A model generated the notes under the pieces. The model had not been told where the DNA came from. It did no database searches and worked only from the letters and a program-made list of their open reading frames with translations. Shown here in pieces: positions 8,437 through 40,000 of a stretch of DNA of 40,000 nucleotides. The position numbers and the translations under genes are program-made. The first letter of the stretch is position 1; the number at the start of each line of letters is the position of its first letter. Origin of the DNA: Halosimplex marinum (GTDB lineage Archaea; Halobacteriota; Halobacteria; Halobacteriales; Haloarculaceae); contig NZ_JBLKNY010000007.1 in the NCBI RefSeq assembly GCF_051414075.1, forward strand, positions 12,706 through 52,705. Reading direction: 5' to 3'.

Positions 8437-9981
8437 TCAGTCCTCGATCTCGGCGGCGGGCGCGTTGCGTTTGACGCTCTCGATACCGTCGCGGGCGCCG
8501 CTACGGTCGCTGTAGCCCTCGCCGCTGTCCATCAGGATGTTGCCGTTGCGGTGCCGGAGTCGCCAGCGGTGCTCGCCGCCGGCGTCCTCGTAGATCTCGA
8601 AGGCCGCCCGCCCGATGTCGAGGGCGTCCGCCTCGGGCGCGTATTCGCGGACGCGGTCGACCGCCGCTTCCGCCTCGTCGCGGGCGCTGTAACCCTCGCC
8701 GCTGTCGGCGAGGATCTCCCCGTTGCCGCTCAGGAGCCGCCAGCGGTACTCGCCGGCGTTGTCCTCGTAGACCTCGAACTCCAGGTCGTCGACGCGCTCG
8801 CGGACCCGGTCGACCGCCCTGTTGGCGTCGTTGCGACGGGTGTAGCCCTCGCCGCCGTCCGCGAGGATCTCGCCGTTGCGGTGGACGAGCCGCCAGCGCC
8901 ACTCGTCGGCCTCGTCGCGGTAGACCTCGAACCCGGCGGGGTCGAACCAGAGGTAGTCGGCCGGCCCGACGTACGACTGGACGCGGTCGACGGCCCGCCG
9001 GGCGTTGCTCCGCGAGGCGTAGCCCTCGCCGCCGTCGCCGAGAACGTTCCCGTTGTCGTGGCGGAGCCGCCAGCGGTACTCGCCGGCGCTGTCCTCGTAG
9101 ACCTCGATCGTCCCCTGGCTCTCCAGTTCCTCGACGGGTTCGAACTCGGCGTCCTCGTCGGGGATCTCCGCCTCTCGCTCGAACAGCAGCGTCGTCGCGC
9201 CGAGGGCGTTGCGGCGGACGCTCGCCATCCCCTTCTGGGCGTTGTGTTTGCGGGTGTAGCCCTGACCGCCGTCGGCGACGACGTTGCCGTTGCGGTGGCG
9301 GAGCCGCCAGCGCCACTTCCCGCCGGCGTCCTCGTACAGTTCGAACCGGGCACGGCTCTCGTGGAGCGCGTCGAGTGTCGTCTGGAGGTCCGCCGACTCG
9401 CTCTCGCTCGCGGCCGTCTCGTCCCGGGCCTCCTCCAGTTCCGCGGCCAGCCGGTCGCGCTCCCCCTCGACCTCTGCGAGTTCAGCCTCCAGTTCCGCGT
9501 TCCGGCTCTCGCTCGCCGCCAGGTCCTCCCGCGTCACTCCGGCGATCAGCGGGGCGATGACGCCGACCAGGGTGATGATCCCCAGGCCGACCGCGTACAG
9601 GACGATGACCGGCTGGCTCCCGGTCTGGACGCTCCAGTCCGCCGGGAACACGACCACGAACCAGGCCGCCGCGACGAAACAGACGGCCTGTCCGAGATAC
9701 GCCGCGTAGTTGGCCCACGGCTGGAGCGGCAGCCTGATCACGGGCCCCGCGACCAGCATCGCGAGCCCGACGGCCGCGACGAAGATGCTCAGTTCCCGGA
9801 GGGTGAGCCCCGAAGTCCCGACCGCCGACGAACTCGGCAGGAACAGGACGACCCCCAGCGTCCCCAGCACCAGCCCCGTCAGGAACACCCAGTACCCCCG
9901 AACCTCGTCGCGTGTCGTCGGCTCCCCGACTCGGTCCCGATACACGCCGTACAGCAGCCCGTCGTTTGTCTCGGATGCCAT
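8437..9981 (-). CDS. Membrane-anchored protein with coiled coil and five tandem YegP/DUF1508 (UPF0339, HVO_2922-like) modules
   Basis: aa 28-148 form about 4 TM helices and aa 150-210 an acidic coiled coil (ELEAELAEVEGERDRLAAELEEARDE). Five modules of the form FE[LV]YED.AGE.RWRL.H.NG..[LV].D.GEGY..R..A...[VI].[RS]V follow, starting at aa 213, 292, 351, 402 and 461. Confidence 0.85.
   Translation of the reverse strand: MASETNDGLLYGVYRDRVGEPTTRDEVRGYWVFLTGLVLGTLGVVLFLPSSSAVGTSGLTLRELSIFVAAVGLAMLVAGPVIRLPLQPWANYAAYLGQAVCFVAAAWFVVVFPADWSVQTGSQPVIVLYAVGLGIITLVGVIAPLIAGVTREDLAASESRNAELEAELAEVEGERDRLAAELEEARDETAASESESADLQTTLDALHESRARFELYEDAGGKWRWRLRHRNGNVVADGGQGYTRKHNAQKGMASVRRNALGATTLLFEREAEIPDEDAEFEPVEELESQGTIEVYEDSAGEYRWRLRHDNGNVLGDGGEGYASRSNARRAVDRVQSYVGPADYLWFDPAGFEVYRDEADEWRWRLVHRNGEILADGGEGYTRRNDANRAVDRVRERVDDLEFEVYEDNAGEYRWRLLSGNGEILADSGEGYSARDEAEAAVDRVREYAPEADALDIGRAAFEIYEDAGGEHRWRLRHRNGNILMDSGEGYSDRSGARDGIESVKRNAPAAEIED
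8464..9345 (-). repeat. Five in-frame degenerate coding repeats (YegP/DUF1508 modules, 51-79 codon spacing)
   Basis: The recurrent DNA and protein pattern (ctcgtagacctcga... / cgccagcg.ta/cactc...) is seen five times in the translated ORF. Confidence 0.8.
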
Positions 9982-11447: not shown

Positions 11448-11845
11448 GCGTCCTCACCCCCGGCGGCGGTCGATCCGGCCGCCTCGGTTTCCTCGGTCGG
11501 GTCGCCGGTCGCGTCGTCGCTCGCCCGGTCGGAGAGCGCGACGCCGTCGGCGGCGAACCGACGGGTCTCGTCGGCGGGGCAGAGCCACAGCGTCTCGGCG
11601 GACCAGCCGAACAGCCGTGCGGCCTGTTCGCGGGCGATCTCGGCCGAGGGGGCGCTGACGCTGCCGGCGTGGGTCAGCGGATCGCCGGACTCCTCGCGGA
11701 CGAACAGCTCCCACTCCCGGGTCACGTCGCCGCGCGGCGCGTCGACCGTCGCGTCGAGGGCGCCGTCACCTCCCTCGCGGTCGGGGTCGGGATCGACATC
11801 GGGGTCGGACATATCGGACGGGACGGACTCGCTATTCATACCCAC
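11444..11845 (-). CDS. Small acidic rSAM-partnered protein with PaaB-like core (Htur_1727-like family, from memory)
   Basis: 133 aa. The core REWELFVREESGDPLTHAGSVSAPSAEIAREQAARLFGWSAETLWLCPADE is flanked by Asp/Glu/Pro/Thr-rich tails. The stop overlaps the rSAM GTG (GTGA at 11444..11447). Third-position GC is high. Confidence 0.75.
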   Translation of the reverse strand: MGMNSESVPSDMSDPDVDPDPDREGGDGALDATVDAPRGDVTREWELFVREESGDPLTHAGSVSAPSAEIAREQAARLFGWSAETLWLCPADETRRFAADGVALSDRASDDATGDPTEETEAAGSTAAGGEDA

Positions 11846-16240: not shown

Positions 16241-17928
16241 TAGGTGTAGACGACCGCCTCGAACGGGCGGAAGGTCGCGCCGACGGGATCGGCCGGGGGG
16301 TCGTCGCAGTTGGCGAGGAGAATCTCGGCGTCGCTCGCGGCGAACCCCTCGGGTTCGAACGTCGCCGGTTCGTCGGACCAGTTGCAGACGACGAGCCGGC
16401 GCTCGCCGTCGAGCGTCCGGGTGAACGCGTAGAACTGGTCGTCGTCGGGGACGAGCGGGTCGTAGTCGCCGTAGACGAAGACCGGGTCGTCGTCCCGGAG
16501 GTCGATCAGCCGGCGGTAGTGGTGGAAGACGGACTCGTCGTCGGCGCGTGCGGCGGCGGCGTTGACCTCGGTGTAGTTGTCGTTGACGGGCAGCCACGGG
16601 TCGCCGTCGGTGAAGCCGGCGGCCTCGTCGTCGGACCAGTGCATCGGCGTGCGGGCGTGGTCGCGGCTGCGGTAGTTGACCGCCTCGCGCACGTCGTCGA
16701 ACGAGTCGGCAGTGCCGGCGTCGAGCATGTCCTCGACGAGGCCGACGGTCATCGCGTCGTCGATATCGTCGAGGCTCTCGAACTCGGTGTTGGTCATCCC
16801 GAGCTCCTGGCCCTGGTAGAGATAGGGCGTGCCCCGCATCGTCAGCAGGAAGGTGGCGACGAGCTTCGCGGAGCGGCGGCGGTACGAGTCGTCGCCGAAC
16901 CGCGAGACGATCCGCGGGTGGTCGTGGTTGCCGAGGAACAGCGCCTCCCACGCGGGCTCGGCGACCGCCCGCTGGTTGCGGGTCATCAGCTCCTTGAACT
17001 CCCGGAGGCTCCACTCGCCCCAGTTGTCGTCGGTCCAGTCGTCGGCCTGGTCGACGTCGAGGTGGTCGAAGTGGAACACCATGTCCAGGCACTCGCCCCG
17101 CTGGACGAACTCCCTGGCGTCGTCAGCGTCGGCGCCGCCCATCTCCCCTGCGGACATCGCCTCCTCGGGCACGACCGCGCCGAGCTCGTCGAGGTACTCG
17201 CCGAGCTGCGGCCCGAAGGTGTAGTGTTCCGAGCCGAGCGGGCCGGGCTCGTCGGGGTCGCCGTCGGGGTACCCCTCCGCCTTCGAGAGGTGGCTGATGG
17301 CGTCCATGCGGAACCCGTCGATGTCCTTCTCGACCCACCAGGTGACGATGTCTTTGACCGCCTCGCGCACGTCTGGGTTGCGCCAGTTCAGGTCGGGCTG
17401 GTTCTCGTTGAAGACGTGGAGGTACCACGCCTCCCGTTCGTCGTCCCACGACCACGCCGACCCGCCGAACAGCGACTCCCAGTTGTTCGGCGGTTCGTCG
17501 GGTTCGCCCTCGACCCAGTGGTAGTAGTCTGCGTACTCGCCCTCTCCGCGCTGGGACTTGCGGAACCACTCGTGTTCGCTGGAGGTGTGGTTGACGACCA
17601 GGTCCATGATGAGCTTCATGTCCCGGTCGTGGAGTTCGTCGCGGAGCGCCTCCCAGTCGCTCATGTCGCCGAACTCCTCGTTGATGGCGCGGTAGTCGCG
17701 GATGTCGTAGCCGTTGTCGTGGTTCGGCGAGTCGTAGACCGGCGAGAGCCACACCACGTCGACCCCGAGTTCGTCGAGGTAGTCGACGCGCTCGGTGACG
17801 CCGGGGACGTCCCCGACGCCGTCGCCGTCGCTGTCCGAGAAGCTCCGCGGGTAGATCTGGTAGACCACTGCCTCCTTCCACCACTCGCGGTCGATGCGAC
17901 TGTCCGTGGACTGGTGCTGCTGTGTCAT
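16237..17928 (-). CDS. GH13 alpha-glucosidase / oligo-1,6-glucosidase family, paralogue 1
   Basis: From ATG 17928: MTQQHQSTDSRIDREWWKEAVVYQIYPRSF..DSDGDGVGD. Also GFRMDAISHL and FLGNHDHPRIVSRFG. Confidence 0.9.
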   Translation of the reverse strand: MTQQHQSTDSRIDREWWKEAVVYQIYPRSFSDSDGDGVGDVPGVTERVDYLDELGVDVVWLSPVYDSPNHDNGYDIRDYRAINEEFGDMSDWEALRDELHDRDMKLIMDLVVNHTSSEHEWFRKSQRGEGEYADYYHWVEGEPDEPPNNWESLFGGSAWSWDDEREAWYLHVFNENQPDLNWRNPDVREAVKDIVTWWVEKDIDGFRMDAISHLSKAEGYPDGDPDEPGPLGSEHYTFGPQLGEYLDELGAVVPEEAMSAGEMGGADADDAREFVQRGECLDMVFHFDHLDVDQADDWTDDNWGEWSLREFKELMTRNQRAVAEPAWEALFLGNHDHPRIVSRFGDDSYRRRSAKLVATFLLTMRGTPYLYQGQELGMTNTEFESLDDIDDAMTVGLVEDMLDAGTADSFDDVREAVNYRSRDHARTPMHWSDDEAAGFTDGDPWLPVNDNYTEVNAAAARADDESVFHHYRRLIDLRDDDPVFVYGDYDPLVPDDDQFYAFTRTLDGERRLVVCNWSDEPATFEPEGFAASDAEILLANCDDPPADPVGATFRPFEAVVYTY

Positions 17929-30835: not shown

Positions 30836-32659
30836 ATGGCCGATATCGCGACACTGACGCTGTCGGGGCTGACGGCAGCGTTTCTGCTGGGCGTGTTCGT
30901 CTGGGTCGTACGGCTGGAGGACTGGCGGTCGTACACGCCGACCGTCGGCGGCGGAACCGGCGCCGGCGGGTACGGCACCGGCGAGGAGCAGGCGCACAAG
31001 CCGAGCGGCATCGTCCGCTGGCTGACGACCGTCGACCACAAGGACATCGGGCTGATGTACGGCACCTTCGCCGTCCTCGCGTTCGCCTGGGGCGGGATCG
31101 CCGTCATGCTGATGCGGCTCGAACTGGTCACGCCGACCTCGAACTTCATCGAGAGCAGCCTCTACAACGGGCTGCTGACGAGCCACGGGATCACGATGCT
31201 ATTCTTGTTCGGGACGCCGATGCTCGCGGCGTTCTCGAACTACTTCGTCCCGCTCCTGATCGGCGCCGACGACATGGCGTTCCCGCGGATCAACGCCATC
31301 GCCTTCTGGTTGCTCCCGCCGGGGGCGCTCCTCATCTGGGCCGGGTTCTTCCTGCCGAGCCTCGCGCCCGCCCAGACGGCCTGGACGATGTACACCCCGC
31401 TCTCGATCGAGCAGCCCAACCCCGCCGTCGACCTGATGCTGCTCGGGCTGCACCTCACCGGAGTCTCGGCGACGATGGGCGCGATCAACTTCATCGCGAC
31501 CATCGTCACCGAGCGCGACGAGTCGGTCAGCTGGGCGAACCTCGACATCTTCTCGTGGACCGTCCTCACCCAGTCCGGGCAGATCATCTTCGCGTTCCCC
31601 CTGCTCGGGAGCGCCCTGATCATGTTGCTACTCGACCGCAACCTCGGGACGACGTTCTTCATGACGGGGGAGGGCGGCGGGCCGATCCTCTGGCAACACC
31701 TCTTCTGGTTCTTCGGCCACCCCGAGGTGTACATCCTCGTGCTCCCGCCGATGGGCCTCATCAGTTACATTCTCCCGAAGTTCACCGGCCGGAAGCTGTT
31801 CGGCTTCAAGTTCGTCGTCTACTCGACGCTGGCGCTGGGGGTGCTCTCGTTCGGCGTCTGGGCCCACCACATGTTCGCGACCGGCATCGACCCGCGCCTG
31901 CGCGCCTCCTTTATGGCCGTGTCGCTGGCCGTCGCGGTCCCGTCGGCGGTCAAGACGTTCAACTGGATCGCGACGATGTGGAACGGCCGTCTGCGGCTCA
32001 CCGCCCCCTTCCTGTTCTGCGTCGGGTTCATCGCGAACTTCATCATCGGCGGGGTGACGGGCGTCTTCGAGGCGTCGATCCCGGTCGATATGCTGTTGCA
32101 CGACACCTACCACGTCGTCGCGCACTTTCACTACGTCATCATGGGCGCCATCGCCTTCGCCGTCTTCGCGGGCATCTACTACTGGTTCCCCATCTACACC
32201 GGCCGGATGTACCAGCAGACGCTGGCGAAGTGGCACTTCTGGCTGACGATGGTCGGGACCAACCTCACCTTCTTCCCGATGATCATCCTCGGATACGCGG
32301 GGATGCCCCGCCGGTACGCCACCTACGCCGTCGAAGCCGGGCCGGAACTGCTGTTCACCGCCCTGCACCGCTCGGCGACGCTCGGCGCGCTCCTGCTCGC
32401 GTTCGGCCAGATCATCTTTGTCTGGAACCTCGTCCAGTCCTGGCTGGAGGGCCCGAAGGTCACCGACGGCGACCCGTGGGACCTCAAGGAGACCGACCAG
32501 CACGGCCGCGAGTGGGCCTGGTTCGAACGCCAGCAGGAGACCGCGCTCGCGACCGACGGCGGTCGCGCGAGCGACGCGAGCGGGACCTCGTCGGACGAGT
32601 CCGACGGCGGCGAGGTGACGGGGAGCGACGGAGCGGCCGCCGACCGCGCCGGCGGCTGA
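30836..32659 (+). CDS. coxA: Heme-copper (A-type) cytochrome c oxidase subunit I
   Basis: WLTTVDHKDIGLMYG, DDMAFPRINA, WFFGHPEVYILVLP, WAHHMFATG, VVAHFHYVIMG. An acidic C-terminal tail is present. Confidence 0.95.
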   Translation: MADIATLTLSGLTAAFLLGVFVWVVRLEDWRSYTPTVGGGTGAGGYGTGEEQAHKPSGIVRWLTTVDHKDIGLMYGTFAVLAFAWGGIAVMLMRLELVTPTSNFIESSLYNGLLTSHGITMLFLFGTPMLAAFSNYFVPLLIGADDMAFPRINAIAFWLLPPGALLIWAGFFLPSLAPAQTAWTMYTPLSIEQPNPAVDLMLLGLHLTGVSATMGAINFIATIVTERDESVSWANLDIFSWTVLTQSGQIIFAFPLLGSALIMLLLDRNLGTTFFMTGEGGGPILWQHLFWFFGHPEVYILVLPPMGLISYILPKFTGRKLFGFKFVVYSTLALGVLSFGVWAHHMFATGIDPRLRASFMAVSLAVAVPSAVKTFNWIATMWNGRLRLTAPFLFCVGFIANFIIGGVTGVFEASIPVDMLLHDTYHVVAHFHYVIMGAIAFAVFAGIYYWFPIYTGRMYQQTLAKWHFWLTMVGTNLTFFPMIILGYAGMPRRYATYAVEAGPELLFTALHRSATLGALLLAFGQIIFVWNLVQSWLEGPKVTDGDPWDLKETDQHGREWAWFERQQETALATDGGRASDASGTSSDESDGGEVTGSDGAAADRAGG

Positions 32660-33010
32660 CCGGCGACGCGCCATCGCCGAGAAACGTTCAGTTGATCCGA
32701 AGCGATACGGGCAACTGTCCGCTCTCGTCCCGATAGTTCCCGTACTTGTGTGGCCCCTCGCCACCGTTCCAGACGCTCGTGGTCCCATCATCTCCCACTT
32801 CGCTTGCATATATGGGCATCATGTTTCGTATGTGTGTTGAGGAAGTCCTTATTTGTCACTTTCCCTGGTCGGTGACTTGCGACCGGGATATACCGTTGGC
32901 AACCCCGTCGGACCTTCACCTGGGGCGTCGGGTCGGGCTTGTACTGTCCGGTCAATTGGTAAAAGTTTTCTCGCGTACGGGAGAGTGTCCGCGGGAGGGT
33001 GAACGGTCTG

Positions 33011-34186
33011 ATGGATATCGTGCAGGTGACCCCCTATTTGGCCTCGCCCCCCGGAACCGGTGGTGCGAGGCGTATTCACGGACTGGTCAGCGGGCGACAG
33101 GGTGACGATGAACTGATCCGGTTCTCCGACGGACGGTGCCTCCAGCGGTACGAACTGGACCGACTCGGCGACGTCGAACGGATCGACAGAGAGGGTTACG
33201 TCGAGCGGCGGGTCTGTATTCTCCCCGGAACAATCTCGCGCAGAGTCGTCTCGCCCGCTGTCCAGACTGTCTTCTCCGGGTATCGAACCCGGCTCTACGC
33301 CAACGAAGAACTTCAGCGGACGCTGAAAGGGGCGGACCTCGTCGTGGTCGAACATCCCTGGCAGTTCGACCTGGTTGCCACGCACGCCGACCGAAACACG
33401 ACGGTCGTCTACTCCAGCCACAACGTCGAACGCGAGTACTACGATACCCTGACCGAGCGCGTCTTCGCGGAACCGTTACTCCGCTATATCGAGTCACTCG
33501 AAACCCGGGCGGCAAAGAAAGCGGACCTGGTCGTGGTCACGTCGGAACGGGACGGCCAGCACTATCGCTCCCAATACGGGGTCGAAACGCCCATCCACGT
33601 CGCGCCGAATGCCACACGTATCCCCGAATCGACGGCCGAACCGTCGTCCGATTCCCTCCCGGGTGGCGTCTCCGAAACGGATTTTGTCGCAACGTTCGTC
33701 GGAAGCGACCATCGACCCAACGTGGATGCGGTCGATGCCCTCCTCGAAGTCGTTGACCGCATCTCCGCGGACGTTCAGGTCGTCGTTGCCGGCACTGTGG
33801 GTCACGCGTTCGAGGGGGACAGCACGCCGCCGAACGTCCATCTGCCGGGCTTCGTCGAAGATCTCGATAGTCTCTATGCGTACACGGACCTCGGCATGAA
33901 TCCCGTCACGACGGGCGCCGGATCGAACGTAAAGGTCCCCGAGTACCTGGCTCACGGCGTTCCCGTCCTTTCGACACCGTTCGGTGTCCGCGGCTTCCCG
34001 GTCGAAGACGGGAGGGAAGCGCTCGTACGTGACCTCTCCCAATTCCCCGCGACCATCAATGCGGCCTCCCGGGGCGAACTGGACCTCTCGGCGCTCGCCC
34101 GTCGAGGGAAACGACTCGTCACCCAGCAACTGAACTGGCAGCGGGTCTCCCGAACGCTACTCGACCGGATCCGTACCGAGTACTAA
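33011..34186 (+). CDS. Glycosyltransferase family 4 (GT-B, glycos_transf_1)
   Basis: MDIVQVTPYLASPPGTGGARRIHGL... and the C-terminal motif GAGSNVKVPEYLAHGVPVLSTPFGVRG. ATG 33011 lies 11 nt after GGGAGGG; GTG 32999 is an alternative. Confidence 0.8.
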   Translation: MDIVQVTPYLASPPGTGGARRIHGLVSGRQGDDELIRFSDGRCLQRYELDRLGDVERIDREGYVERRVCILPGTISRRVVSPAVQTVFSGYRTRLYANEELQRTLKGADLVVVEHPWQFDLVATHADRNTTVVYSSHNVEREYYDTLTERVFAEPLLRYIESLETRAAKKADLVVVTSERDGQHYRSQYGVETPIHVAPNATRIPESTAEPSSDSLPGGVSETDFVATFVGSDHRPNVDAVDALLEVVDRISADVQVVVAGTVGHAFEGDSTPPNVHLPGFVEDLDSLYAYTDLGMNPVTTGAGSNVKVPEYLAHGVPVLSTPFGVRGFPVEDGREALVRDLSQFPATINAASRGELDLSALARRGKRLVTQQLNWQRVSRTLLDRIRTEY

Positions 34187-34195
34187 TCGATACTG

Positions 34196-34213
34196 TATAT
34201 TAATAAATATATG
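34196..34213 (+). promoter_or_regulatory. AT-rich TATA region for the GT2 gene (near-leaderless)
   Basis: tatattaataaatatatg is centred about 31 nt upstream of ATG 34236. Confidence 0.4.
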
Positions 34214-34235
34214 TTATTGGACACTACCCCCTGTA

Positions 34236-35108
34236 ATGGCCGATATCGACGTTTCGATCGTCGTCCCAGTCGCTGAGGATCCGGAGGGTCTTCGGACGAC
34301 AGTCAACGCCGTCTTAGCACAGACGTACGACGCATTCGAACTGCTCGTCGTCATCGACGACGAATCGAGCGAGTGTGAGGAGCTAGCCGAGTCGATCGCA
34401 GCCCGGGAGGACAGAATTTACTACTATATCGAAGACGAACACGGTACTGCTGCGGCCGCGCGAAACATCGGGATACGGGAGGCCGCCGGCGATTATCTCC
34501 TGTTCGTCGACGCGAACGTCGATTTCGGCCCCCGATGGCTGTCGACCCTCGTCGATACGATCGGAGCGGAGACCGACATCGTAGGCTGTGCGGTCACTGT
34601 CTACTCCTCGCACAGGGATACGGTCTTCGGGCGTCTGGACCAGCAGACCGGTTTTCCAACTCGCCGGACGATAGAACAACTCAAATTCGCGCCGAGTTGT
34701 TGTCTCCTCGTCGCGCGGGCAGTCGTCGAAGATATCGGAGAATTCGATCCCCGTCTGAACCAGAGCGAAGACCTCGAGTTCGGGAACAGGGCCTACGCCG
34801 GCGGATACTCGTTCGCGTACTTCGACGAGAGATCCGCCTACCACCCCTCCCGATCGTCGTTCACGGCCCTCACGAGAAAGTACCGTCGTCGGGCTGCGGG
34901 GACATCGACGCTCTGTGAGCGTTACCCCGACCGATACGGGCCGGACGGTGATCACCTCCGACCCGAGGAGAGGATCGTACCGCCGCTGTCCGGGTTCAAA
35001 CGGACCTGTCGAAATTGGGAGGACCTGTCATCGGCCGACAGAGTCACCCTGTACGCGGCGTTCGTGGTCGTCCGACTCACAGCTCGCCTCCAGAGACTCG
35101 CTCGATGA
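34236..35108 (+). CDS. Glycosyltransferase family 2
   Basis: DVSIVVPVAEDPEGL..., VIDDES, AAARNIGIREAAGDYLLFVDANVDF (DxD). This is a GT-A fold signature. Confidence 0.85.
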   Translation: MADIDVSIVVPVAEDPEGLRTTVNAVLAQTYDAFELLVVIDDESSECEELAESIAAREDRIYYYIEDEHGTAAAARNIGIREAAGDYLLFVDANVDFGPRWLSTLVDTIGAETDIVGCAVTVYSSHRDTVFGRLDQQTGFPTRRTIEQLKFAPSCCLLVARAVVEDIGEFDPRLNQSEDLEFGNRAYAGGYSFAYFDERSAYHPSRSSFTALTRKYRRRAAGTSTLCERYPDRYGPDGDHLRPEERIVPPLSGFKRTCRNWEDLSSADRVTLYAAFVVVRLTARLQRLAR

Positions 35109-35700
35109 CAGGTCACCGGATCCGCGTCGTCGACCCCGAGTCGAAACGTCGATCCCACATCGAGGACGGTCCTCGGAACCGTGTCGAGCCGTTCACCGCT
35201 TCAGTATCCGTACCGGGAGCGTTAGAACGCGTTTCAGATATCTGACCGCGAGATCCCGGAGTCTGACATCCTCGGACTTCGTCACGTATCCGATACCGCC
35301 GTCCTTATCGGTCCCTGTGTATGCCATATCTGACATAAATGCGTCTACTGTAAATAGTTCTGTCGCTTTATGAATTAGTTACACCGACACGTTCTCCGAA
35401 ATGTGTGTGATTTTTCACTCTAGCCATCAAGAGGCGGTGGGGTCCGGGATCGAGAATTTTCCGGCTCGCGTTCGGGGCTCCGGTCGTGGCGGGGTCGGTA
35501 CCCGCGGTTAGACATTCGAACGCGGAAGGCCCGCCGGAGCCAGCGAGTACCGAACTGCATCGGCCGACCGGGTGTTCGCTCACGCCCCACACGGTCTTCG
35601 ATCCGGTCGCCCTGTCCGGTGAAGTTGTGAATTACGAACGTGACCCCGCAGAAATTCCGTTGTTTCGCCCTTCGCGTTACCGATACACGACTCCGGTTCG

Positions 35701-36251: not shown

Positions 36252-37049
36252 ATGGACCACTTCGAGCGGAGCGGCCCCGTCCGCCGCCCGGGCACCACCG
36301 CGCTCGCGGGCCGGACGGTCGCCGTCGCGGTCGTCGTCCTCCTGGCAGTGACCGCCGCGGTCGGCCTGGGAGTGGTCGCGCTCGGCGGGGGACCGGGCGC
36401 CGCGGTCGACGCGCCGAACGCCACCGCGCCGCCGACCGACGACCGGCCCGGGGACGCGCCCGCGACCGGGTCGAACGGGACGGTCGTCGGCGGTACTGCC
36501 CCCGTCGCGCTGACCGACGACGCGGGGTCGTCCCCCGCCGACAGCTCCGACTCGGCCGCGACCGACGGCATCAACACGACGCTGATCGAGCGGGCGATCC
36601 ACGACCGGGTCAACGAGATCCGCAGCGATCGCGGTCTCTCGGCGCTGGCTTACGACGAGGACCTGGCGGAGATCGCCACCTACTACAGCCGCCGGATGGC
36701 GACCGAGGAGTTTTTCGCCCACACCGGCCCCGACGGGCAGACCCTGCTCGACCGCTACGAGCGCTTCGGCTACGACTGCCGGGTCGACACCGGGGGACAG
36801 CGGTACGTGACCGGCGGCGAGAACCTCGCGTACACCTACGCCGACACCCCGGTGGAGACCGAGGGCGGCGTCGTGAGCTACGACGGCAACGAGACGCGGA
36901 TCGCCCGCGGCATCGTCGAGGGGTGGATGCACTCCCCCGGACACCGCGAGAACCTCCTGCGGCCCTACTGGAACCGCGAGGGCGTCGGGGTCGTCCTCGA
37001 CCCCGAGAACGGCAAGACGCAGGTGGTCGCCACGCAGAACTTCTGTTGA
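36252..37049 (+). CDS. CAP/SCP (PR-1-like) domain protein with N-terminal membrane anchor
   Basis: Anchor TVAVAVVVLLAVTAAVGLGVVAL, followed by a Thr/Pro/Asp linker. CAP motifs: LAEIATYYSRRMA, GENLAYTY, IVEGWMHSPGHRENLL. ATG at 36252; GTG 36207 is an alternative. Confidence 0.8.
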   Translation: MDHFERSGPVRRPGTTALAGRTVAVAVVVLLAVTAAVGLGVVALGGGPGAAVDAPNATAPPTDDRPGDAPATGSNGTVVGGTAPVALTDDAGSSPADSSDSAATDGINTTLIERAIHDRVNEIRSDRGLSALAYDEDLAEIATYYSRRMATEEFFAHTGPDGQTLLDRYERFGYDCRVDTGGQRYVTGGENLAYTYADTPVETEGGVVSYDGNETRIARGIVEGWMHSPGHRENLLRPYWNREGVGVVLDPENGKTQVVATQNFC

Positions 37050-37132
37050 GGGGCGAGTGGCCGTCGACGCGAGTGGCCGTCGGCGCGAGGGGCCGATGAC
37101 CCGGCGGCTGACGACCCGAACGCCCGCTCGGT

Positions 37133-38464
37133 TCAGTCGGCCCGGCGAGTCAGCACCAGCCCGGTGACCGCGCCGGCGGCGGCGATGCCGGCCAGTACGA
37201 GGAAGAGCGCGGTCGTGGTCGCGACGGCGAGGATCCCGCCGGCGATTGTACCGCCGAGGGCGCCGACGCCGAACACGCCGAGGTAGGTGAACCCGTAGGA
37301 GAGCCCGCGCGTGCCCGACGGCGTGTGCTCGGCGACGGTCGCCTGGTACATCGGCTGGACGACGAACAGGAAGGCGCCCAGCAGCGCGCCGAGGGCCACT
37401 AGCGGGCCGAGTCCCGCCTCGGAGACGGGGACGAACAGGACAGCGAGGACCGCGAGCGTGCCGAACGCGCCCGCGAGACCGTAGCCGAGGGGGACGCGGT
37501 CGGTGAGCTTCCCGCCGACGTACTGGCCGACGACGCCGACGAGAAGCAACCCGGAGTAGAAGTACCGCTGGGGCTCGATCCGCCGGCCCGCGCCCGACTC
37601 GACGCCGAAGGTAGCCCTGACGGACTCGGGGAGGAGCGCGTCCGCCGGGACGGGTTCGAACCCGGGGAGGTCCCGGAGCAGTTCCGGGAGGAAGGTCAGG
37701 ACGCCGCGGTAGTACAGCCCCGAACACATCACGACGACGAACACCAGCGCGAACCCGCCCGCGAACAGCAGCCGCGACTCCGCGAGGAACTCGCCGAGGT
37801 CGTCGACGCCGCTGGTGGCCTTCGAGCCACCGTCGGCGGCCGTCTCACCGTCGGCGGCCGTCTCGCTGTCCGCGACGGCGGCGGTCTCGTCGAAGTCGGC
37901 GCGGGCGGCGTAGACGGCGGCGAGGACGGCGGGCGCGCCGAGGACGAGCGCGACGGTCCGCCACTCGAAGAACAGGAGCATGACCGTCGCGGCCAGCGGT
38001 CCGAGGCCGATGCCGAGGTTGCCGGCCACGCCGTGGTAGGCGAGGCCGGTGCCGCGCTGCTCGACGCCCTTGCTGATGAGCGAGAGACCCGCGGGGTGGT
38101 AGACGCTGGCGGCGATCCCCCACAGGACCAGCGCCGCGGCGACGACGAGCATGTTCGGCGCGAGGCCGAGCAGGACGTACGAGAGGCCCATCCCGAGCAG
38201 GCAGGCGCTGATGAGCCGCCGCGAGCCCACGCGGTCGACGAGGACCCCGCCGGGGAGCGCGCCGAGGCCGAACAGGCCGTAGCCCAGCGTGACGACCACG
38301 CCGACCGTCGCCGTCGTCACGTCGACGCTCGTGACGCCGAGCGGGATCGCGTCGAACTCGGTCAGCCAGACGACGACGAACAGCGGGACCGTCATCTCGT
38401 AGGTGTGGACCGCGCCGTGGGCCAGCGACGCGAGCGCCGTGATCGCCCTGTCGTTGCTGTTCAC
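37133..38464 (-). CDS. MFS transporter
   Basis: 443 aa with about 12 TM segments. Motif A-like sequence: LPGGVLVDRVGSRRLI. An acidic central loop is present. GTG start at 38464. Confidence 0.85.
   Translation of the reverse strand: MNSNDRAITALASLAHGAVHTYEMTVPLFVVVWLTEFDAIPLGVTSVDVTTATVGVVVTLGYGLFGLGALPGGVLVDRVGSRRLISACLLGMGLSYVLLGLAPNMLVVAAALVLWGIAASVYHPAGLSLISKGVEQRGTGLAYHGVAGNLGIGLGPLAATVMLLFFEWRTVALVLGAPAVLAAVYAARADFDETAAVADSETAADGETAADGGSKATSGVDDLGEFLAESRLLFAGGFALVFVVVMCSGLYYRGVLTFLPELLRDLPGFEPVPADALLPESVRATFGVESGAGRRIEPQRYFYSGLLLVGVVGQYVGGKLTDRVPLGYGLAGAFGTLAVLAVLFVPVSEAGLGPLVALGALLGAFLFVVQPMYQATVAEHTPSGTRGLSYGFTYLGVFGVGALGGTIAGGILAVATTTALFLVLAGIAAAGAVTGLVLTRRAD
37829..37864. repeat. 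2 x 18-bp perfect tandem duplication inside the MFS central loop
   Basis: accgtcggcggccgtctc occurs twice in tandem and encodes GETAAD-GETAAD on the minus strand. Confidence 0.9.
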
Positions 38465-38490
38465 TAAATCGCTGTATTCCGTCGCCGGCC

Positions 38491-38498
38491 TTTATTTC
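38491..38498 (-). promoter_or_regulatory. TATA-like element for the MFS gene
   Basis: The minus strand reads gaaataaa, centred about 30 nt upstream of the GTG at 38464. Confidence 0.35.
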
Positions 38499-38637
38499 GA
38501 CGGTTCCGATGCTTCCTAATTAACGAAGCTCATTTACGCTATTTCTCGGTTTTAAATCAGGGGTTAGGGTGGAATTCTTGTGTCTATCTACCGAATTATT
38601 TTATCCTCGACTTTTTGATTCTGAGAACAATTACTTT

Positions 38638-38651
38638 GATTAACTATTAAG
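38638..38651 (+). promoter_or_regulatory. TATA-like element for the island ATPase gene (near-leaderless)
   Basis: gattaactattaag is centred about 31 nt upstream of ATG 38676. The whole region is AT-rich, so specificity is low. Confidence 0.3.
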
Positions 38652-38675
38652 TAGCCTGAATTGGGTTTCTACACC

Positions 38676-40000
38676 ATGAATCTCGATGGAGTTAAATCAT
38701 ATTCGATCAAAAATTATAAGTCTATTATCAACTCAGGCGATATTGATATTGATGGCATTTCTGTGATTTTGGGCCCGAACAGCTCTGGAAAAACCAATTT
38801 GATAGAACCGCTTCTCCTACTTAAACAATCCACAGATACAGAAGGCCTCAATTTGACACTAAATGGCAAAAGCATCAAAGCTGGAACGTATTCGGAAGTG
38901 GTGAAAGATCACGAGATCGAGAATGACATTGTATATAGTTTCAAATATGACTATTCGAATGAGCCAAAGGATGATGATCGGCCCTTAGAGTGTCCTATAT
39001 GTAGTAAGAATTATATTGAAGAAGGCTGGTATAGGCGTCACATTAGAACAGAGCATCCAAAATTCTGGAATTATGCGGAAGAATCTATTGAGATATATGA
39101 AGATTTCCCTCCCGACAATCCTTATCTCGAGCTTGCGTTTGGATATGATGAAGAGGTTGAGAGAAATCGTCTGAAGCGTGTGGAAATGGGCTATCCAGAA
39201 GAAATCGGATCTTTATATTTGTCATATATCTCTGCACAATTCAAGCGGAGCAGTGTGTCTGTATCTGTTATTGATGTAAATGATAATCAAATATTAGATG
39301 TTGAGCTCGAAAATGAGGATCACTATATATCAAATCCACAGGGACTGATAGCTATTGAATATGTACTACGTGAAACTATCTCAAATTTCGCGAAAGGAGA
39401 TCGGGGTCGGCAGTATCTGAGATATTCTAAGAACCAACCATATATTCCAGATCAAAAAATCCCAAGCGCTGAATTGCACTCAAAGGAGCTCTCAAAAATA
39501 TTCCAATTATATAACAAGGGTGAAGACCCAGATAACAGGAGTGATTTAAATATCAACGAGGAACTGGAGAACCTTGCAAGAGGACTAATAAACAGGATCG
39601 CTTCTTCTGTGGAAATATCAAGCAAAATGCTTCGATATATAGATAATGTTGGGGAAAATATTTCCCATGTAGGGCCGTTAAGAAGGAGTCCGCAAAGAAT
39701 TTATTTCGGAAGTGGAGCAGATTCCAGGGATTCGCACTCGCAAGGTGTAAATATTGAAGAAAAAATCCTCAGAAAAGCTGAGATGGGGAACTCACCGATC
39801 TTAGAAAAGACAAACCAATGGTTGAAACAGACAGGATTTGACTGCAAATTAGATATTGAGAGTGTAGAAATCGGGGATATCTATCAGTTAAAAGTAATTG
39901 AGGATGGTCTATCCGTTAATTTAGCTGACTCGGGTTTTGGACTCTCTCAAGCCCTGCCGATTCTGGTTGAGTGTATATATATGGGTCTACGTGAGGAAAG
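38676..40000 (+). CDS. ABC/SMC-type AAA_15/AAA_21 (DUF3696-like) ATPase with embedded C2H2 zinc finger; 3' end beyond the window
   Basis: Own translation; 441 codons remain open to the window edge, so it is absent from the ORF track. Sequence: MNLDGVKSYSIKNYKSIINSGDIDIDGISVILGPNSSGKTNLIEPLLLLKQS (Walker A at 38772..38795) ...HVGPLRRSPQRIYF...TNQWLKQTGFDCKLDIE...LADSGFGLSQALPILVE. The Walker B/D-loop is expected just beyond 40000. Confidence 0.85.
   Translation, partial: MNLDGVKSYSIKNYKSIINSGDIDIDGISVILGPNSSGKTNLIEPLLLLKQSTDTEGLNLTLNGKSIKAGTYSEVVKDHEIENDIVYSFKYDYSNEPKDDDRPLECPICSKNYIEEGWYRRHIRTEHPKFWNYAEESIEIYEDFPPDNPYLELAFGYDEEVERNRLKRVEMGYPEEIGSLYLSYISAQFKRSSVSVSVIDVNDNQILDVELENEDHYISNPQGLIAIEYVLRETISNFAKGDRGRQYLRYSKNQPYIPDQKIPSAELHSKELSKIFQLYNKGEDPDNRSDLNINEELENLARGLINRIASSVEISSKMLRYIDNVGENISHVGPLRRSPQRIYFGSGADSRDSHSQGVNIEEKILRKAEMGNSPILEKTNQWLKQTGFDCKLDIESVEIGDIYQLKVIEDGLSVNLADSGFGLSQALPILVECIYMGLREE
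38991..39056 (+). other. Canonical C2H2 zinc-finger motif inside the ATPase
   Basis: ECPICSKNYIEEGWYRRHIRTEH = C-x2-C-x3-Y-x5-Y-x2-H-x4-H, matching the classical C-x2-4-C-x3-F-x5-L-x2-H-x3-5-H spacing. Confidence 0.6.

Follow-up and report, generated by a model that had tools for sequence, protein, structure and literature searches.

Few archaeal antiviral systems beyond CRISPR and restriction–modification have been tested. The described systems closest to the locus reported here couple an ATP-binding cassette (ABC) ATPase to a protein of the PIN type. HEC-03 (Hma-embedded candidate 03) consists of an ABC ATPase and a VapC-like PIN protein and cut the plaquing of phages in Escherichia coli by orders of magnitude; both of its genes are needed for defence, and it is toxic on induction (bioRxiv 10.1101/2024.01.29.577857). 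Menshen has three genes, including the ParB/DUF262 sensor NsnA; the PIN-like domain of NsnC is inactive and fused to a C-terminal nuclease, and structure modelling predicted that the DUF3696 tail of the ATPase NsnB binds this PIN-like N-domain (PMC12065111). In this study, we analysed a 40,000-nucleotide stretch of the genome of the haloarchaeon Halosimplex marinum (contig NZ_JBLKNY010000007.1, positions 12,706–52,705; the whole stretch is hereafter called the window). The last 1325 nucleotides of the window contain the 5′ part of a gene encoding a DUF3696-type ATPase, embedded in AT-rich DNA. In our judgement, the window probably ends inside a horizontally acquired, AT-rich module, similar to HEC-03, that is composed of a DUF3696 ABC ATPase and a PIN protein.

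The gene at position 38676 encodes an OLD-like ABC ATPase subunit of the AAA_15/AAA_21/DUF3696 type. From the ATG at 38676, 441 stop-free codons extend to the window edge, an event with a chance probability of approximately 3e-15 at this base composition. The 441 encoded residues were 100% identical to residues 1–441 (the N-terminal 77%) of P0001, a 575-amino-acid protein of H. marinum (Haloarculaceae) that is encoded on a 247-kb contig and annotated "DUF3696 domain-containing protein". Given the length of P0001, the ATPase gene is expected to end at around position 40403, 403 bases past the window. The features of the gene and its product are as follows.

38676–40000, plus strand: gene for the DUF3696-type OLD-like ABC ATPase, codons 1–441 of 575 (from the translation, identity to P0001, Pfam, and PADLOC)
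38772–38795, plus strand: Walker A motif (P-loop) GPNSSGKT, residues 33–40, with G33, N35, G38, and K39 invariant in the clade
38991–39056, plus strand: C2H2 zinc finger C106-x2-C109-x12-H122-x4-H127 (CPICSKNYIEEGWYRRHIRTEH), residues 106–127 (from alignments and profile matches)
39672–39704, plus strand: GPLRRSPQRIY motif, residues 333–343, with G333, L335, R336, P339, R341, and Y343 invariant
39927–39950, plus strand: ABC-signature-like motif DSGFGLSQ, residues 418–425, with D418, G420, F421, G422, S424, and Q425 invariant
Outside the window: Walker B motif IIEEPEIHL, residues 462–471 of P0001, conserved
Outside the window: H-loop ETHSEH, residues 496–501 of P0001, conserved
About 40227–40343, outside the window: DUF3696 tail with WPEGFFQDD, residues 518–556 of P0001

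The first-pass annotation, which was made from the sequence of the window, had placed this protein among the AAA_15/AAA_21/DUF3696 ATPases on the basis of three motifs. All three motifs are present (GPNSSGKT at residues 33–40, GPLRRSPQRIY at 333–343, and DSGFGLSQALPILVE at 418–432), and full-length P0001 passed the Pfam cut-offs of all three families: AAA_21 (PF13304) with 64.0 bits (cut-off, 27), AAA_15 (PF13175) with 63.3 bits (cut-off, 32.1), and DUF3696 (PF12476) with 41.3 bits at residues 518–556 (cut-off, 22). The part within the window passed for AAA_21 (38.7 bits) and fell just under the cut-off for AAA_15 (31.3 bits). In alignments with 20 relatives, Walker A, GPLR..P.RIY, the signature-like motif, Walker B, the H-loop, and the DUF3696 tail were all invariant. 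By its place in the sequence, GPLRRSPQRIY appears to sit at the Q-loop position, and the Q-loop of Menshen NsnB has been described as replaced by arginine (PMC12065111). A search of solved structures with the clade profile gave no close structure, only OLD, Rad50, SMC, and FtsE at E-values of about 1e-4.

The same annotation had called the ATPase a defence type, and this was borne out by PADLOC, in which the best models for full-length P0001 were all of defence systems or defence candidates: PDC-M55A (179 bits), NsnB of Menshen (175 bits), HEC-03B (159 bits), and AriA of PARIS (83 bits). The HEC-03 ATPase model (PDLC04148) thus ranked third, with an E-value of 4.6e-47, and the GajA, PtuA, and Old models gave weak P-loop matches. 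Nothing was found on the PDC-M55 candidate system in a literature search. The names of the HEC-03 components are inverted between sources. In the preprint, the ATPase is HEC-03A and the PIN protein is HEC-03B (bioRxiv 10.1101/2024.01.29.577857), whereas in PADLOC, HEC-03A (PDLC04147, 159 positions) is the PIN protein and HEC-03B (PDLC04148, 458 positions) is the ATPase. The PADLOC names are used here.

An ATPase of the same broad group was also noted in a bacterial prophage. In the P2-EC5 prophage of E. coli ECOR5 (AM157364.1, 243–2913; L090), a 555-amino-acid DUF3696 ATPase (NsnB, 168 bits; HEC-03B, 140 bits) is followed by a 333-amino-acid protein with no PADLOC match. This cassette in the P2 variable region, a known anti-phage hotspot, looks like a further uncharacterised DUF3696-ATPase pair.

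Classical C2H2 zinc fingers are rare in prokaryotes. Judging from the alignments, a conserved C2H2 finger, which the first-pass annotation had overlooked, is the most distinctive feature of the long-form haloarchaeal clade to which the H. marinum ATPase belongs. C106, C109, H122, and H127 were invariant in all 20 long-form relatives (562–587 amino acids), and the whole finger segment was absent from the short bacterial DUF3696 ATPases of approximately 458 amino acids. The Pfam model zf-C2H2 (PF00096) scored 17.6–18 bits, under its cut-off of 25.2 bits; the clade profile matched the solved C2H2 fingers of the eukaryotic proteins HIC2, ZBTB20, and ZFAT (E-values of 6e-4 to 1e-3), and one orthologue (P0003) had been labelled as a C2H2 finger protein by the JGI pipeline. 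The finger comes after the P-loop helix and before the GPLR motif, the equivalent of the Q-loop, and this order of the motifs suggests that it occupies the "Insert 1" region, which Payne et al. proposed to be the specificity-determining part of these ABC ATPases (bioRxiv 10.1101/2024.01.29.577857). No paper describing a finger-bearing form of the ATPase was found in a literature search.

In terms of the effector, a partner of the TOPRIM or HNH type had been predicted to lie just beyond position 40000. The evidence on this point was drawn from relatives, not from H. marinum. The loci first inspected (L002–L008) were a 13-kb hypersaline metagenome contig with an ATPase 49% identical to that of H. 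marinum (L002), the chromosomes of Halorussus salilacus (L003; ATPase 38% identical) and Halobellus rubicundus (L004), and four metagenome contigs (L005–L008), with the same ATPase in L006–L008. All of these loci contained a same-strand gene of 153–163 codons after the ATPase gene, and its start overlapped or abutted the ATPase stop, an arrangement of translational coupling. The small downstream proteins were mutually homologous (39% identity, E-value of 8e-35). Two word-indexed profile searches for the partner returned five proteins each, and an exhaustive profile search returned 130 cluster representatives, nearly all of 130–200 amino acids, with a few shorter fragments. A pattern-based scan added 80 metagenomic loci with the ATPase and one on a viral contig. 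When the hidden Markov model of the partner family was applied, a member was found directly downstream of the ATPase, on the same strand, at 85 of 88 loci. After clustering at 90% identity, the partner was present in 71 of 74 clusters, including 11 of the 12 in the zinc-finger clade. The three exceptions were L017, the twelfth zinc-finger-clade cluster, which contained a truncated PIN-like open reading frame (ORF) starting with "MKKSFIFDTNII"; L052, with a divergent ORF containing "AIDTNIF"; and L062, with a truly different neighbour. In none of these 74 non-redundant loci was the ATPase gene followed by a TOPRIM, DUF4435, or HNH gene.

The conserved partner in the relatives is therefore a small protein that differs from the predicted type, and several lines of evidence indicate that it is a nuclease of the PIN fold. 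Pfam PIN_3 was matched by 29 of 77 members of the partner family (best E-value, 2.9e-8), and the Halobellus member is named as a PIN domain protein in UniRef. A structure predicted with AlphaFold2 from the 77-sequence alignment had a predicted local distance difference test (pLDDT) score of 96 and a predicted template modelling score of 0.90, with a beta–alpha–beta–alpha layout; this alignment was used in place of one of five sequences, which gave an unusable model (pLDDT, 49). Among the top 30 matches of the model to the PDB in Foldseek, nearly all were PIN, NYN, or HARP structures (probability, 0.95–1.0; template modelling score, 0.47–0.56), led by HARP RNase P, VapC2, PAE0151, PAE2754, VapC20, Nmd4, and MCPIP1. 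The acidic residues were well retained: D8 in 76 of the 77 sequences, D46 in 75, E54 in 67, D107 in 76, and D126 in 66, with E in a further eight. In the model, D8 comes after beta1 and D126 after beta4, helix 3 contains E54, and D107 is at the N-terminus of a helix; D46 is an additional conserved acidic residue beyond this D-E-D-D quartet. The PADLOC model of the HEC-03 PIN protein matched five of the eight partners tested (E-values of 9e-7 to 9e-5). When PDB sequences were searched with the profile of the partner family, the only match was a weak one to VapC (E-value, 0.15). Taken together, the family, model, and residue data mark the partner in the relatives as a predicted PIN-fold nuclease with an intact acidic site.

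At one of the loci, L007, a canonical Pfam PIN protein (PF01850; 144 amino acids, positions 153–587) is encoded directly upstream of the ATPase, so that two PIN genes flank the ATPase gene. When the partner profile was aligned with this canonical sequence using hhalign, only the "ID.N" motif of beta1 was aligned.

Because the partner occurred in 71 of the 74 related clusters, there is a high prior that H. marinum has the same one, and it very probably carries the PIN gene at approximately 40400–40900. The partner would thus not lie just beyond position 40000, as had been predicted, given that the ATPase gene itself needs the 403 further bases to its end.

Other features were noted around the pair in relatives. 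In Halorussus salilacus, the gene immediately downstream of the PIN gene is on the other strand and encodes a 63-amino-acid MazE/AbrB-like protein of the antitoxin type (L003, 12190–12381, minus strand), and a transposase gene of the IS240 family is located 4 kb beyond it (16477–17112). Two copies of a 26-nt repeat, TTCGAGATAAAATCCATATCTAAAGA, which are 81% identical, occur in the same locus at 9945–9970, about 30 nt 5′ of the ATPase start, and at 11570–11595, about 125 nt 5′ of the PIN start and within the ATPase gene; to judge from these positions, the repeat could be a duplicated promoter-like element. In L005 (1166–4808), the ATPase was called as a protein of 681 amino acids, and the 5′ end of the called gene overlaps a DUF7845 gene. 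Since the core of the finger clade aligns from around residue 107, the start was probably mis-called, and a fusion is the less likely explanation of the extension.

When compared with known systems, the ATPase and the partner seen in relatives were most similar in architecture to HEC-03, which the first-pass annotation had not named. Both consist of a two-gene operon that encodes an OLD-like ABC ATPase and, after it, a small PIN protein of the VapC-like kind. Both types of HEC-03 model were matched (PDLC04148 by the ATPase and PDLC04147 by partners of the relatives), and the partners, at approximately 158 amino acids, agree in length with the 159-position PIN model. In contrast, the haloarchaeal ATPase is approximately 115 amino acids longer than that of HEC-03 and bears the C2H2 finger and additional residues in its insert region, and the present module has an archaeal host and acidic proteins. 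Furthermore, HEC-03 was discovered within Hma systems; the present modules occur in integrative elements or small AT-rich islands. Short bacterial pairs scored 175–189 bits on the HEC-03 ATPase model, with a weak match or none on the PIN model. As the matches of both proteins to the HEC-03 models were moderate, we class the module, on its sequence, as a distant relative of HEC-03 and not as a canonical member; the finger-bearing, largely archaeal clade is a variant form of the known ATPase-plus-PIN kind. HEC-03 was not listed among the prevalent systems in a survey of haloarchaeal defence.

PARIS also combines an OLD-like ABC ATPase scaffold with a nuclease effector, and its AriA model gave the 83 bits mentioned above. 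Its logic, in which the effector is sequestered and then released on a trigger, is likely analogous. However, its AriB effector is of the TOPRIM/DUF4435 type rather than PIN, and AriA has neither the DUF3696 tail nor the zinc finger.

The DNA at the end of the window differs sharply in composition from the rest. The region where the change occurs comprises two features.

37133–38464, minus strand: gene for a major facilitator superfamily (MFS) transporter, host flank; 443 amino acids, guanine-plus-cytosine (GC) content 0.73, GC content at third codon positions (GC3) 0.96, Pfam MFS_1 114 bits
38465–38675, no strand: junction and divergent intergenic region, 211 bp, GC content 0.39

In 200-nt windows, the GC content fell from 0.73 (38200–38399) to 0.51 (38400–38599) and then to 0.34–0.41 up to position 40000. 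At a resolution of 40 nt, the drop begins directly past the MFS start codon (38464), which is the last clearly native base ahead of the switch; the GC content is intermediate (0.45–0.55) from 38460 to around 38520 and no greater than 0.42 beyond that, so the AT-rich island proper starts at approximately 38505–38520. The last 1325 nt of the window have a GC content of 0.388, compared with 0.697 ± 0.035 elsewhere (z = −8.7; reference, 743 windows of the same size in the rest of the window, with a minimum of 0.577). The abrupt change from GC-rich to AT-rich DNA past the MFS promoter that had been described from the sequence is thus real, with a fall from approximately 0.73 to 0.38 between 38,460 and 38,520. 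The intermediate stretch of approximately 55 bp contains a TTTATT element 27–35 nt from the MFS start, possibly an archaeal TATA box for a leaderless MFS mRNA, and a TATA-like sequence, "TTAACTATTAAG", 24–36 nt 5′ of the ATPase ATG, is a putative promoter element of the ATPase gene. A comparison of the regions upstream of the ATPase in six loci revealed no conserved promoter or regulatory DNA. In agreement with the first-pass annotation, the left junction showed no mobility features: no tRNA was found in the whole window, there was no Rfam match in 38200–40000, no tRNA-end motif or tRNA remnant at the junction, no junction-specific repeat or att site, and no integrase ORF to the left of the junction within the window.

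The gene on this DNA is similarly atypical. Lysine accounts for 6.1%, asparagine for 7.0%, and isoleucine for 9.8% of the ATPase residues, and GC3 is 0.36, whereas real host genes in the window have 0.4–2% lysine, 0.3–3.8% asparagine, and a GC3 of 0.93–0.97. The richness in these residues had been taken as a sign of foreign origin. The residue composition is confirmed, but as an argument for foreign origin only the codon and GC bias stands: the protein is acidic (isoelectric point, 4.6–4.8; aspartate plus glutamate, 18%), as haloarchaeal proteins are, and is therefore salt-adapted. The donor pool was probably halophilic rather than non-halophilic for this reason. Consistent with this, the isoelectric points in the halophile clade were 4.6–5.2 for the ATPases and 4.05–5.0 for the PIN proteins, compared with 6.2–8.8 and 5.4–9.3, respectively, for finger-clade members on low-GC contigs.

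The composition and the related loci support the view, already proposed from the window, that this is a horizontally acquired mobile or defence island: the DNA is compositionally foreign in H. marinum, and orthologous modules occur in low-GC mobile islands of other haloarchaea. In every GC-rich host (L002–L012), the ATPase–PIN module had a GC content of 0.35–0.43, with flanks of up to 0.65–0.75. For example, in Halobellus rubicundus (JBGNYA010000001.1; L004, 2559–15619), the pair is carried by an integrative element of 13,028 bp. The element is flanked by a direct repeat of 25 bp, AACGGACCCGACGGGATTTGAACCC, and the right copy overlaps a tRNA-Arg(ccg) gene at the 3′ end of that gene. This element encodes a tyrosine integrase, a D5-type primase (D5_N/DUF5906), a DUF6884 protein, a faint GIY-YIG match, and a bPH/SHOCT protein, and within it the GC content is lowest in the ATPase–PIN pair (0.39 vs 0.46–0.56). 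An integrase lies at the edge of the island in L002, L005 starts at a tRNA-Tyr, and the island in Halorussus is only approximately 5 kb long. The GC content of the module was often below that of the mobile element carrying it and, on low-GC contigs, equalled that of the surroundings. The copies share only 38–53% identity and must have diverged over a long time, yet all remain AT-rich with no drift to the host composition, which suggests either circulation in an AT-rich mobile gene pool of halophiles or selection for AT-richness. No haloarchaeal virus with the module was identified, as a phage collection gave no full-length match and only bacterial prophage ATPases; the PIN partner was absent from PLSDB, and a megablast search of PLSDB returned only distant MFS homologues.

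By analogy with the modelling of Menshen, the genetics of HEC-03, and PARIS, a mechanism can be proposed in which the C-terminal DUF3696 tail of the oligomeric ATPase would hold the PIN nuclease, as predicted for NsnB and NsnC. The variable insert, including the zinc finger, would sense an infection cue, and the presence of a finger in this insert suggests that the ligand may be a nucleic acid or a viral protein. The binding or hydrolysis of ATP would then release or activate the PIN RNase, which would cleave host or viral RNA, and virus production would stop, following the abortive-infection logic of PARIS. The extreme codon mismatch between the ATPase gene (GC3, 0.36) and the host (GC3, approximately 0.95) probably keeps the expression of this potentially toxic pair low.

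Several observations weigh against the interpretation of the locus as an HEC-03-like defence module. For the ATPase, both PDC-M55A and NsnB outscored HEC-03B, to which the match was only moderate, and three partners (P0122, that of L006, and that of the bacterial locus L047) did not match the HEC-03 PIN model. The left junction in the window has no integrase, tRNA, or att site. The protein-search matches included no PIN partner from H. marinum, although this carries little weight because the same searches missed known members of the family. Protection against viruses by both genes is known only for HEC-03, as tested in E. coli, and not for archaeal members, and both the docking on the DUF3696 tail and the part of the zinc finger in sensing are drawn by analogy.

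Among the alternatives, the pair might be an addiction module or a toxin–antitoxin-like device that stabilises a mobile element, with the PIN protein as the toxin and the ATPase as its inhibitor. The pair is indeed cargo of integrative elements in relatives, its PIN protein is VapC-like, HEC-03 is toxic on induction, and genes of the toxin–antitoxin type are located close by in some relatives (MazE-like in L003 and the canonical PIN in L007). The partner resembles the effector of VapBC type II toxin–antitoxin systems in being a small PIN-fold protein with an acidic site of the D-E-D-D type, and its structural matches included VapC2, VapC20, and PAE2754. However, the present PIN proteins belong to a divergent PIN_3-like family, with the extra invariant D46 and a GFH..D motif, and are preceded by a 575-amino-acid ATPase rather than a VapB-type antitoxin, which is absent here. 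Given that HEC-03 cut phage plaquing by orders of magnitude with both genes needed, and that ATPase–effector pairs of this superfamily have repeatedly proved to be defence systems, we consider stabilisation of a mobile element unlikely as the main function, although the two roles are compatible.

The locus could also be a decaying remnant, in which the ATPase is an orphan on a fragment of an old island and the partner has been lost or the system is inactive, as the left junction devoid of mobility genes and att site might suggest. We regard this as improbable, because the ATPase is intact at its full length of 575 amino acids with every catalytic motif conserved, and its GC content has not shifted towards the host value.

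Slightly less probable still is that the gene is nsnB of a Menshen (NsnABC) system, with the ParB/DUF262 sensor and a two-domain NsnC located past the window. NsnB gave the second-best PADLOC match (175 bits), and the two ATPases share their subfamily, the C-terminal DUF3696 helix tail, and a signature motif of the GxG type; the partners in relatives also share the PIN-like fold of NsnC. However, the relatives lack NsnA: no DUF262/ParB gene was found beside the ATPase in L002–L008 or upstream of it in the window. Moreover, the conserved partner is a stand-alone, single-domain protein of approximately 160 amino acids (150–170 in the relatives) that retains the acidic residues of PIN nucleases, whereas NsnC combines an inactive PIN with a C-terminal nuclease. 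Membership of Menshen was rejected on these grounds. The least probable reading is a PARIS, Septu, Gabija, or OLD-type system with a TOPRIM, DUF4435, or HNH effector just downstream, since, despite the OLD-like ABC ATPase fold common to all of these and the AriA (83 bits) and weak GajA, PtuA, and Old matches, the scores were far below those of the DUF3696 group, and the partner content of the related loci (TOPRIM, DUF4435, or HNH in 0 of 74 non-redundant loci and PIN in 71 of 74) led us to reject PARIS, Septu, and Gabija.

If the HEC-03-like ATPase–PIN module is the correct reading, the locus is a concrete haloarchaeal member of the superfamily of defence systems composed of an ABC ATPase and an effector, with HEC-03 as its closest tested relative. 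Another such ATPase–nuclease pair in a defence island would be unsurprising; it is the finger, the archaeal setting, and the combination of an acidic protein with unameliorated DNA that merit follow-up. The zinc-finger insert is a candidate for the trigger-sensing surface of such ATPases and is tractable to mutate. The acidic proteins encoded by DNA that never drifted to the GC content of the host also provide a useful case for examining regulatory reasons for the atypical composition of defence cargo. A more far-reaching proposal, which we put forward tentatively and consider possible rather than probable, is that there is an archaea-centred branch of DUF3696 defence ATPases that has both a C2H2 finger in its sensor insert and AT-richness kept by selection. 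If so, the finger would let the ATPase directly recognise viral nucleic acid or a viral protein and thereby unleash the PIN RNase, and the AT-richness (GC content of approximately 0.39 in hosts of approximately 0.70) might be a built-in brake on expression and not a sign of recent import. In terms of annotation, a haloarchaeal "DUF3696 domain-containing protein" followed by a "hypothetical protein" of approximately 160 amino acids is best read as an ATPase–PIN pair.

Some features elsewhere in the window were also noted. A second stretch of lower GC content (0.59–0.65, with dips to 0.49–0.55 near 32700–32900 and 35200–35500) extends from 31000 to 35500 and adjoins the gene for cytochrome oxidase subunit I (30836–32659). 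It contains two glycosyltransferase genes, one of the GT4/GT1 type (32999–34186) and one of the GT2 type (34236–35108), and the GC3 of the latter is 0.71, compared with approximately 0.95 in host genes. This stretch may be a variable island for cell-surface glycosylation. Within the MFS gene (37828–37887), the 18-nt sequence CACCGTCGGCGGCCGTCT is perfectly duplicated in tandem and accompanied by a third copy at 78% identity; in the protein, this gives a cytoplasmic loop of the transporter in which "ETAADG" is repeated. Three tandem 16-nt units, GCGAGTGGCCGTCGAC (100%, 94%, and 81%), are located at 37053–37100, where they occupy the short spacer between the MFS gene, which ends at 37133, and a convergent CAP-domain gene, which ends at 37049.

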